NCBI GenBank assembly: GCA_002383615.1
Contig: DFYN01000040.1
Coordinates: forward strand, 1 to 28,691
DNA from: Anaerolineaceae bacterium UBA4081
GTDB taxonomy: Bacteria > Chloroflexota > Anaerolineae > Anaerolineales > Anaerolineaceae
Length of the DNA: 28,691 nucleotides
Reading direction: 5' to 3'
Of this stretch, positions 17,139 to 19,004 are shown piece by piece. The stretch's first letter is position 1, and each line of letters starts with the position of its first letter. Under the pieces are notes generated by a model. The model worked only from the letters and a program-made list of their open reading frames with translations. It did not search any database and was not told where the DNA came from. Both the position numbers and the translations under genes were made by a program.

Positions 17139-19004
17139 GTGAAGATCAAGTCGCTGACACTTACAGATTTTCGGGCCTTCCCAGGACCAGCGCCGCAATC
17201 TTTCAATCTGGATGGTAAGAACCTGCTGGTTTATGGTGAGAATGGGGCGGGGAAGTCATCCATTTTTCATGCGCTACGGGATTTCTTTTCGTTCAAGCCA
17301 ACCAAGCCAATACAAGACCACAAAAACGTTTTTTCCGGCCAACCGGATGCCGATTGCCGAGTTACAATTGAATTTGCAGACGGCACAGCACCCGTGGCAT
17401 GGAGTAAGGCACATCATCCAGGTTCAAAATCTATTGCCACTGGCGATCCAAGGGTGAAGGAGGCGGCTCTTCGCCGCTCCTGCCTCGATTATCGGTCAGT
17501 CCTTGATACCAACTATCTGCACGGTGACAACGAAATCAATCTGTTTCACATTGCTGTTAAGCAATTAGTGCATGACTTTCCGGTCACGGTCGCAGGCGGT
17601 GTCACGAAAACTGTCGAAGAGTTGTGGCAGCAAGCCATAAATGCGGAGCCCGTTACTCGCTACCAGTCGCATGAAAGAGTCAATGAGGCGTGTGCTTTAT
17701 TTAATGCTGGGTTCAATCAGGCACTCACGGCTCTTCACCCAAGACTAATTACACTTCTTGGGGAACTGCTCGGAACTGAGGTGACACTTTCTCCATTCCA
17801 GTTCCCAGGAGTTACCTATCAGACAGCACATCAAACAAGAGACCGAAAATTCAACGGCCAGGAAGTAAAAATCGACATTACTTTTCGCGGCCATCAGCCT
17901 GTCAGGCCACAGAACTTTCTCAATGAAGCTCGTCTGTCGGCTCTTGGATTGGCAATTTATCTTGCAGGAAGGCTGACATTTGTACCAACAGCAGCAACTC
18001 CCTCGCTAAAATTATTGGTTCTCGATGATGTATTAATTGGACTCGACCACTCCAATCGTTTGCCAGTGTTGGAGGTGCTGAAAAAGCATTTTGTCGATTG
18101 GCAGATTGTCCTGCTCACCCATGATCGCGTCTGGTTCGAGATGGCCCGCATGTATACCCAGGATAGCAACCTGTGGTCGTATGCGGAGGTATATGAATCC
18201 GAGGACGTTGATCGTGGAATACCATATCCTATTGTCCGTAAAGTAAACGACAAGGCGGCTTATGGGTGTTTGGAGCAAGCAAGGAAGTTCCTGGCGGACC
18301 ATCATGTTCCTGCATCCGCAAATTACGCGCGAGCTTCCTTTGAATTGGCACTGAAGTTATTTTGTCAACGCTTTGCCGTTCCGGTTCAATTCAATATGGA
18401 TCCACGACATGTGGACACCGAAAACCTTCTTTCTGCGGTAGAACGGTGGATAAAAGATCATGCGGCCAAAGCTACTATGGCTGGCGTGATAGAAGGCGTT
18501 AAACTGTTTCGCAAGGTCGTCTTAAATCCTTATTCCCATGCATCACCACCTAATATCGCTGAAGCAGAGGTGAAGGGGGCGATTTCTGCAATAGAAAGGT
18601 TGCTGGATACCCTTGACCCGAAAAAAGCAACCGACAAAAAACTACTCGAGATTACGCGATCTCTGCTTGCCGCTCCTACGCCCACAGTTGAGGATGTGGT
18701 TACAGCGATGTCCTATTTGCGTGCCGCGTTTACCTTAAGTCTCAGATCATATTGCGAGAGGAAAAGGGTTGCAGTTGCTTACTCAAATGCGCTTTCAAGC
18801 AACCGGCAACTATGGGATAAGGCAAAGACTGATGTAACGCATCCAATCCCACACACAATTGTACCGGCTGTAGAAGCTCACGGTCATATTCTAATTGACG
18901 AACCATCGCTTGTTACAGTTACAGGATTAACACAAATTACGGTTCAGGCTGCTTTGGCGGCAATTGAAGTTGCTGGATGTCCAGAAAAAACGGTTCTTGA
19001 TTAA
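17139..19004 (+). CDS. ABC/SMC-type ATPase with C-terminal tandem HEPN-like domains (PrrC/RloC-like), 621 aa
   Basis: Walker A GENGAGKS, signature variant LNEAR, Walker B/D-loop LVLDDVLIGLD and H-loop LLTHD. C-terminal NYARASFE and RKVVLNPYSH. Confidence 0.8.
   Translation: MKIKSLTLTDFRAFPGPAPQSFNLDGKNLLVYGENGAGKSSIFHALRDFFSFKPTKPIQDHKNVFSGQPDADCRVTIEFADGTAPVAWSKAHHPGSKSIATGDPRVKEAALRRSCLDYRSVLDTNYLHGDNEINLFHIAVKQLVHDFPVTVAGGVTKTVEELWQQAINAEPVTRYQSHERVNEACALFNAGFNQALTALHPRLITLLGELLGTEVTLSPFQFPGVTYQTAHQTRDRKFNGQEVKIDITFRGHQPVRPQNFLNEARLSALGLAIYLAGRLTFVPTAATPSLKLLVLDDVLIGLDHSNRLPVLEVLKKHFVDWQIVLLTHDRVWFEMARMYTQDSNLWSYAEVYESEDVDRGIPYPIVRKVNDKAAYGCLEQARKFLADHHVPASANYARASFELALKLFCQRFAVPVQFNMDPRHVDTENLLSAVERWIKDHAAKATMAGVIEGVKLFRKVVLNPYSHASPPNIAEAEVKGAISAIERLLDTLDPKKATDKKLLEITRSLLAAPTPTVEDVVTAMSYLRAAFTLSLRSYCERKRVAVAYSNALSSNRQLWDKAKTDVTHPIPHTIVPAVEAHGHILIDEPSLVTVTGLTQITVQAALAAIEVAGCPEKTVLD

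Follow-up and report, generated by a model that had tools for sequence, protein, structure and literature searches.

The DNA analysed here, referred to below as the window, is a stretch of 28,691 nucleotides from the Anaerolineaceae bacterium UBA4081 of the phylum Chloroflexota (assembly GCA_002383615.1, contig DFYN01000040.1, positions 1 to 28,691 of the forward strand). It carries three consecutive plus-strand genes, which encode a nuclease-helicase, a large DNA methyltransferase (methylase) and an ATPase. The subject of this analysis is the last gene of this triad, here called the ABC-HEPN gene, whose product (P0001; family members are numbered P and loci are numbered L) combines an ABC ATPase head with a predicted HEPN ribonuclease (RNase) domain, copy 1, and a degenerate second HEPN domain, copy 2. 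According to the list of open reading frames (ORFs), the GTG start codon of the gene lies 2 bases past the stop codon of the methylase gene, and in the alignment the N-terminus of P0001 lines up with the start of its homologues. The gene and its parts are as follows.

17139-19004, plus strand: gene for an ABC ATPase with a HEPN and a degenerate HEPN domain; 621 amino acids, GTG start, TAA stop (ORF list, translation).
17139-18236, plus strand: Rad50/SMC-type ABC ATPase head, residues 1-366 (Pfam SMC_N/AAA_23, PDB profile matches, Foldseek, invariant motif residues).
18252-18623, plus strand: copy 1, a HEPN-fold domain predicted to be an active RNase, residues 372-495 (Foldseek, Pfam HEPN).
18330-18344, plus strand: R398-x3-E402 (codons CGA...GAA) on the helix 390-411 (family conservation; aligned to the Arg and Glu of RloC ARRLxE).
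18525-18539, plus strand: His motif N463-P-Y-S466-H467 (family conservation; local match to RloC L-H-T-Y-S-H).
18687-19001, plus strand: copy 2, a degenerate HEPN duplicate, residues 517-621 (hhalign, conservation profile).

The head contains a Walker A motif (G33-x4-G38-K39-S40), a signature-like region (N262-E263...LSAL), a Walker B motif (D296-D297) and an H-loop (H328), of which the first three are conserved in the family and the last mostly so. In several divergent members, e.g. P0121, P0188 and P0220, H328 is replaced by Tyr or Phe and the RNase triad is intact; judged from these substitutions, some such members may bind ATP but not hydrolyse it. The AlphaFold2 model of the whole protein, built from a 144-sequence alignment, reached pLDDT 95 and pTM 0.90, and its best Foldseek matches were Rad50 (4ncj, E 6.6e-11), cohesin SMC1A and the retron protein PtuA. 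A PDB sequence-profile search with the head also led to Rad50 and SMC. PADLOC models showed weak similarity of the head to PbeC/DndD. The PADLOC matches to mad3, LmuB and GajA over the first 50 residues were rejected as P-loop similarity and not membership, and the PADLOC scan of the C-terminal halves returned generic ABC matches only (mad3, LmuB). The insert of the head is compact where Rad50 and RloC carry a coiled coil, its sole long helix in the AlphaFold2 model having 33 residues (179-211), and no CxxC was found anywhere in the sequence of P0001. We concluded that the protein has no RloC-type coiled coil or zinc hook, as the first-pass annotation, which had been made from the sequence of the window alone, had already reported.

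Since the Foldseek search with the whole model returned ATPase heads only, the C-terminus was modelled separately, a check which the first-pass annotation had itself proposed. The AlphaFold2 model of residues 366-621 (pLDDT 93, pTM 0.90) best matched HEPN proteins: the high-probability matches in the PDB were 2q00, 1o3u, 1wol, 4nqf and Csm6, with probabilities of 0.92-1.0, TMt of 0.60-0.67 and E-values of 0.05-3.6. For 2q00 the values were E 0.049, probability 1.0 and TMt 0.64-0.67. All these matches were obtained with the two-copy model and may stem from either copy. Pfam HEPN was the family most often matched by the C-termini of the members (12 of 60, best E 3.5e-4), and 4 members matched DUF4145 and 1 HepT-like_2. 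P0001 itself aligned with PF05168 at E 0.07 over profile positions 10-113 of 117, and the homologue P0105 carries a precomputed match to the same family. By these models and matches, the HEPN fold of the C-terminus is well supported but not proven.

It might be argued that the C-terminal domains are generic four-helix bundles with another chemistry, such as the binding of nucleotides or second messengers or the cleavage of DNA. Several results weigh on that side. The E-values of the HEPN assignment are weak (the Pfam matches lie below the gathering score, and even the best Foldseek match is only the 2q00 one given above), and four-helix bundles match easily. When the C-terminal alignment was used for a PDB sequence-profile search, no structure of HEPN or PrrC/RloC type was retrieved. 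In addition, the canonical HEPN arginine of the Rx4-6H motif is missing, the positions -4 to -6 of H467 being N463, L/M462 and V461. We nevertheless regard this explanation as very improbable, because, among the top Foldseek matches, those with the highest probability and the highest TM score are HEPN proteins, because different members gave independent Pfam matches to HEPN, DUF4145 and HepT-like families, and because the residue pattern equals the proven triad of RloC and PrrC.

Residue counts were taken from an alignment of 225 homologues, or from 107 sequences in the case of copy 2; 265 relatives were collected in all. The first-pass annotation had assigned to copy 1 an R-x3-E motif together with RKVVLNPYSH, and had held that a lack of conservation of the Arg, Glu and His among homologues would count against its prediction. 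In fact R398 and H467 occur in 225/225 sequences and E402 and N463 in 224/225, followed by E477 (220/225) and S466 (199/225), and all 19 odd-tailed forms that reach the copy 1 region also retain its catalytic-type residues. The Arg of RKVVLNPYSH did not hold up: R458 is variable (R in 150 of 225, K in 57, others in 18) and, lying 9 residues before the His, it is not the canonical Rx4-6H arginine. The family pattern is instead Asn-x3-His plus an Arg contributed by the Arg-x3-Glu helix. In RloC and PrrC the proven triad is Arg-X3-Glu-X36-52-His, often with a Ser before the His, and both cleavage and toxicity are lost when any one of the three is mutated (PMC2610378). A further point against equating the two sites is the spacer E402-x64-H467, which at 64 residues, with S466 as its last, lies outside the published 36-52.

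The full-length profile alignment with 116 RloC relatives was colinear (probability 92%, E 5e-7), with the Arg/Glu and His motifs in register. Both families share the Arg-x3-Glu and L-[N/H]-x-Y-S-H motifs and, in the head, a 'DD' Walker B with an LD motif after it and a T-H H-loop. Two observations weaken the comparison: it is mainly the ATPase that accounts for the full-length score, and profiles of the HEPN part alone did not match RloC significantly, aligning the His motif only (10-16 columns, E 0.001-0.02, probability 2-22%). RloC, a tRNase that excises the wobble nucleotide, differs moreover in several features. Its long coiled coil bears a CxxC zinc hook and an Arg stands 7 residues ahead of its His, none of which is present in ABC-HEPN, and it is rarely linked to restriction genes. 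A true RloC from a genome of the same phylum (P0266) matches Pfam AAA_13 (PF13166) at E 4.7e-164 and has 'ARRLVE' and 'FLHTYSH' in its C-terminus. For P0001, no AAA_13 match was obtained at E <= 0.01; a precomputed match of P0184, a distant homologue of the long form, to this family is only faint, and the ESM Atlas gave unnamed clusters only, plus AAA_13 as a weak lead (score 0.83). Thus, of the earlier description as a PrrC/RloC-like ATPase, the ABC head and the HEPN-fold tandem with Arg-x3-Glu...Ser-His were retained, and membership of AAA_13 by profile was not. From these comparisons we consider that the ABC-HEPN protein probably works like PrrC and RloC, as their distant kin, and yet is not a member of AAA_13.

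An internal repeat in the C-terminus had also been claimed, on the basis of two segments that correspond to residues 392-418 and 522-548, and this claim was borne out. BLASTP of the copy 1 half against the copy 2 half gave E 6e-6 with 34% identity over 47 amino acids, and hhalign matched the family profiles of the two copies with a probability of 98.7-99.0% (E 1.8e-16 / 9.2e-18) over 104 columns; therefore the entire domain was duplicated and not one helix alone. The match still holds when the copy 1 profile is drawn only from proteins without copy 2. Furthermore, a hidden Markov model (HMM) of copy 2 from a single clade detects copy 1 in 225/225 members (median 24 bits) and also matches copy 1 of short-form proteins, i.e. 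those without copy 2, in unrelated loci (E 1e-7 to 1e-10). Between the two copies, residues 496-516 form a variable linker. Copy 2 retains R528 (102/107), F531, L535, L558, W559 and the terminal L-D, and it is without the Glu, Asn and His of copy 1: T532, at the Glu position, varies within the family, and neither Asn nor His is found where copy 1 has them. This agrees with the R-x3-T and the missing NxxSH described for it at first. Copy 2 evolves faster than the other parts of the protein, its mean pairwise identity (0.32) being below that of copy 1 (0.49) and of the ATPase (0.51).

Copy 2 was verified in 98 of 239 family members; the HMM used for its detection was made from one clade, recognised 41 of the 46 long forms that lie beyond it and gave no match to short tails. 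Mapped on a tree of residues 1-495, the distribution of copy 2 requires 20 changes by parsimony. Long and short forms occur together in 10 well-supported minimal clades, from which it appears that the family acquired or lost copy 2 on at least 10 occasions. The closest relatives of P0001 include short forms at 63-67% identity. Since most members are without copy 2 and it has been gained or lost so many times, catalysis cannot require it, and copy 2 is not an obligatory catalytic partner. Its conserved Arg, Trp and C-terminal L-D nevertheless argue for a retained function, and the pTM of 0.90 in both AlphaFold2 models suggests that its position is fixed relative to copy 1. A separate gene for copy 2 was searched for in the short-form loci and was not found. 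Among 12 phylogenetically independent long/short pairs, no position of copy 1 or the ATPase showed a significant hydrophobicity shift tied to copy 2, the best p value being 0.065, uncorrected.

Most likely, copy 2 is an optional dead HEPN domain that tunes the switch, whether it packs on copy 1 and acts there as a brake or pseudo-partner, or serves to dock the protein to the methylase. A more specific proposal, which we find doubtful, is that the live and dead domains form a single-chain HEPN pair, in which copy 2 would occupy the pairing surface of copy 1 and an asymmetric site would be built from R398/E402/N463/H467 and R528. Two HEPN-derived domains in one chain are also found in Cas13 and in the Swt1 HEPN dyad, so an intrachain pair is possible; in Cas13, however, both HEPN domains are catalytic, whereas here only the first is predicted to be so and the second is optional in the family. 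If a single-chain pair did exist, the RNase would be freed from ATP-driven dimerisation of the heads, or it would be locked until a partner displaced copy 2, and the natural pairs with and without copy 2 would show dimer-gated HEPN toxins becoming single-chain enzymes. Such a step is presumed in the origin of Cas13-like two-HEPN effectors.

The two genes upstream of the ABC-HEPN gene are the following.

9854-13171, plus strand: HKD (PLD) nuclease fused to an SNF2 helicase, 1105 amino acids (Pfam PLDc_2, SNF2-rel_dom, Helicase_C; PADLOC 'HKD+Snf2', E 2.7e-126).
13186-17136, plus strand: Eco57I/TaqI_C-type N6-adenine methyltransferase, 1316 amino acids (Pfam, PADLOC).

No Hsd subunits were found among the neighbours in the window by Pfam, PADLOC and NCBIfam scans, and the expectation of a partner other than a type I restriction-modification system was thereby confirmed. 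Of 13 related loci in which the upstream flank is long enough, 12 have the order helicase-methylase-ATPase, the ATPase gene being directly last, and the methylase gene lies directly upstream of the ATPase gene in L001, L003, L006-L009, L012, L014 and L020-L023. The stop and start codons of the triad genes often overlap or nearly abut. Hosts of the triad are Nitrosospira (long form), Achromobacter (short form), Bosea, Burkholderiales, two sampled genomes of the phylum Chloroflexota and metagenome-assembled genomes of Bacteroidota; the triad thus spans Pseudomonadota to Bacteroidota, where the ATPases of the assembled genomes show 23-28% identity. The triad loci sit on mobile islands or prophages, and because the Nitrosospira locus (L001) and L023 adjoin phage terminase and capsid genes, we conclude that the triad travels on prophage-like elements. 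Searches of a phage collection and, at the DNA level, of E. coli genomes gave no match, and plasmids gave two weak matches only.

The dependence of the genes on each other is one-sided. Among 400 sampled genomes of the phylum, 2 carry the ABC-HEPN ATPase, both in the triad, and about 19 carry full-length homologues of the helicase. Of 12 loci with the helicase and an Eco57I-type methylase, 10 are without the ABC-HEPN ATPase and 2 have it; in the 10 ATPase-less pairs, either nothing co-oriented comes next, or GmrSD and an AAA_15/21-DUF3696 ATPase do. Because the pair mostly exists without the ATPase, the pair is regarded as the core and the ABC-HEPN gene as a specialised add-on, with the reservation that the genome sample behind the count of pairs without ATPase is small and that its kin are not independent. 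By analogy, this one-sided dependence resembles that between PrrC and type I systems, for which such an asymmetry is described in PMC3458546 and in a preprint by Payne et al. The idea of a guard for a restriction-like partner, put forward in the first-pass annotation, thus gained comparative support from an ATPase that is nearly always with the pair and a pair that is mostly without it.

Taking these results together, we believe, with somewhat better than even confidence, that ABC-HEPN is a latent, ATPase-controlled HEPN RNase that serves as an add-on second-line defence for an HKD-SNF2/N6-adenine methylase restriction-like system. The computed basis of this reading consists of the ABC head motifs, the near-invariant HEPN residues, the degenerate second domain, the placement behind the methylase and the pair that mostly stands alone; the RNase activity, its latency, its trigger and its target are drawn by analogy with PrrC/EcoprrI and RloC. 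On that analogy, the ABC head would hold the RNase off. Blockage of the partner complex, or its encounter with foreign DNA, would trigger nucleotide-driven engagement of the heads, and this engagement would bring the HEPN domains into an active arrangement. An RNA required for translation would then be cut, with tRNA as the obvious candidate, and the infection would be aborted.

The tight gene order is also what would be expected if ABC-HEPN were a core, non-toxic subunit of a restriction-like complex, whose ABC head loads, loops or senses DNA like DndD/PbeC and whose HEPN domains bind nucleic acid or dock. Besides the stop/start overlap or 2-base gap with the methylase gene and the strict adjacency in 12 of 13 loci, this explanation can draw on the weak PADLOC matches that link the head with PbeC/DndD and the helicase with PbeA, on the pairing of an HKD-SF2 helicase with an ABC ATPase in Pbe-type systems (PMC10853773) and on the existence of non-catalytic HEPN domains, as mentioned in the 2013 HEPN survey (PMC3710099). 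The divergence of the ATPase, which counts for the guard reading as well, also tracks that of the methylase (Spearman 0.90) more than that of the helicase (0.55; n = 8 loci), a comparison that is only a hint because all distances were measured to one reference, the window protein. It seems to us rather improbable all the same. The pair is found without the ATPase in 10 of 12 sampled loci, so the ATPase is not needed for the core; the family-wide near-invariance of the Arg, Glu, Asn and His is the behaviour of a catalytic site and not of a binding surface; and a coiled coil and a DndE-like partner gene are both missing.

Directly downstream of the ABC-HEPN gene the window contains two further genes.

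19041-20897, plus strand: GmrSD_N (DUF262) protein (Pfam).
20833-22575, plus strand: Schlafen AlbA_2 + HATPase_c_4 protein (Pfam).

The genes from 9854 to 22575 all run in one direction, and a scan of positions 9000-23500 for promoters and terminators revealed no signal above the shuffled expectation and none separating the genes. A reading of the five genes as a single unit was rejected, since the GmrSD and Schlafen genes are not conserved alongside the helicase-methylase-ATPase triad. They are taken as variable accessory genes outside it, because L023 is the sole related locus in which GmrSD comes after the ATPase, and L001 and L003 carry other genes there. The GmrSD-like protein of the window matches the N-terminal DUF262 profile only, and the homologue that follows the ATPase in L023 contains GmrSD_N as well as GmrSD_C. 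The Schlafen ORF as listed (TTG at 20833) overlaps the GmrSD-like gene by 65 bases; therefore its true start may lie further downstream.

Such varied company bears on the reading of the adjacency itself, which alone is no proof of physical coupling because the slot behind the methylase also hosts GmrSD and an OLD-like ATPase. The ABC-HEPN protein could accordingly be a self-contained abortive-infection toxin lodged in a defence hotspot behind the methylase, with no functional link to the helicase or methylase. The same slot holds GmrSD (the window and L023), GmrSD with an AAA_15/21-DUF3696 ATPase (L034, L035) and Schlafen; RloC works without a linked restriction system (PMC2610378); and the distant ATPase homologue of L011 has neither a helicase nor a methylase in the 10 kb upstream of it. 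But unlike GmrSD or Schlafen, the ABC-HEPN family is nearly confined to a place beside this methylase, even at 23-30% identity across phyla. In a decayed locus on a Nostoc plasmid, the ATPase still follows a TaqI_C remnant of the methylase, and the only 2 carriers among the 400 sampled genomes have it in the triad. We therefore judge a stand-alone toxin to be unlikely. The Nostoc case (L050) is found on the conjugative plasmid pANSO36B of Nostoc cf. commune (7988-10434), where a 477-amino-acid short-form ATPase lies behind a 338-amino-acid TaqI_C methylase fragment; no helicase is annotated upstream, and the locus appears decayed.

The reading as a second-line RNase invites comparison with known systems, among them PrrC, the anticodon nuclease embedded in the type Ic system EcoprrI. 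Like PrrC, ABC-HEPN joins a compact ABC head that lacks a coiled coil to a HEPN-type nuclease domain at the C-terminus, in which Arg-x3-Glu...His is found; both genes depend on a linked restriction-modification locus, while such loci exist without the gene, and both occur on mobile defence islands. The partner of PrrC is HsdMSR, whereas here it is an HKD-SNF2 helicase with one large Eco57I-type methylase. ABC-HEPN differs also in having no AAA_13 match, a 64-residue triad spacer and an extra dead HEPN domain, and a tRNA target and silencing could be proposed for it by analogy only.

The Hma system ('type-1 BR') shares the combination of an SNF2 helicase-nuclease, an N6 methylase and an ATPase bearing a HEPN domain, and the HEPN of HmaC has been proposed as a back-up suicide RNase, according to three papers (PMC3710099, PMC11232893, PMC12839542). 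However, HmaC is a DUF499 ORC/Cdc6-like AAA+ protein with an N-terminal HEPN, in contrast to the ABC head with C-terminal HEPN domains found here; HmaA has a C-terminal PD-(D/E)xK nuclease in place of the N-terminal HKD; and HmaB is a DUF1156 methylase and not of the Eco57I/TaqI_C type. The PADLOC HmaA model matches only the generic helicase core of the window helicase (E 1.9e-26). In the Pbe/CxC-ABC system, an HKD nuclease-helicase (PbeA) stands beside an ABC ATPase (PbeC), and the weak PADLOC matches mentioned above relate these to the helicase and the head. Pbe has no HEPN, however, and its coiled-coil/CxC ABC protein, DndE partner and small disordered protein (PMC10853773) were not seen in the window. 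Class 1 DISARM was considered and rejected: DrmD scored 170 bits against an NCBIfam cut-off of 610, the PADLOC matches to DrmMI were partial, and no DrmA/DrmB-type gene was seen among the operon ORFs scanned.

The HKD-SNF2 helicase family occurs in at least three operon designs. In the first, it is accompanied by a large Eco57I-type methylase only (L038-L043). In the second, an Eco57I-type methylase is joined by GmrSD and the AAA_15/21-DUF3696 ATPase (L034, L035). In the third, seen in six loci (L044-L049), a separate DUF4391 gene, an N6_N4 methylase and a type III Res-like helicase-endonuclease are present. The N-terminal segment of the window methylase contains a weak DUF4391-like stretch (residues 132-232), as if a separate DUF4391 gene had been fused on. 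In the Achromobacter locus, a Fic/Doc gene lies directly upstream of the helicase gene (L003, 1704-2765).

The ABC-HEPN family comprises more than 2,100 clusters at 90% identity, with 379 representatives at 50% identity having E <= 1e-30. The records examined annotate its members as 'AAA family ATPase', as 'hypothetical' or under other generic or wrong names, and no specific Pfam, NCBIfam or PADLOC model for the family was found. No description of the triad or of a live/dead HEPN tandem was found in the literature searched, the 2020 ABC ATPase classification and the full supplement of the HEPN survey being outside its scope; the clade may appear in either, e.g. among the groups 'RloC-like ABC-HEPN with R-M and Doc' or 'APECO1_4465'. 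The 2013 survey cited above predicted second-line defence for many HEPN clades, including 'RloC-like ABC-HEPN' near restriction-modification genes and Doc toxins (PMC3710099).

PrrC is the textbook example of a suicide RNase that guards a restriction system, and it is tied to type I enzymes. By analogy, the present family appears to play the role of PrrC for a different, uncharacterised HKD-SNF2/methylase restriction system. If this is true, the design of restriction plus an RNase back-up arose again on another chassis, annotation tools gain a new searchable defence gene, and natural family members with and without the dead HEPN domain offer a clean handle on the gating of HEPN nucleases by ABC heads.

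The remainder of the window has the character of a mobile island, with an integrase (4690-6048), DUF932, AlpA and a DUF3987/Toprim primase. Between the Schlafen gene and alpA lies an ORF of 684 amino acids (22944-24998, plus strand) which has no Pfam, NCBIfam or PADLOC match. At the edge of the window there is an AbiEi_4 antitoxin-like regulator (8-496, minus strand), any AbiEii toxin partner of which would fall beyond the window. Just outside the integrase, a gene for a small TPR protein (3820-4380, plus strand) adjoins one for a protein of 971 amino acids (808-3723, minus strand) with WD40 repeats in the N-terminal and a caspase domain (Peptidase_C14) in the C-terminal part, and this WD40-caspase protein may have a role in cell death or defence.

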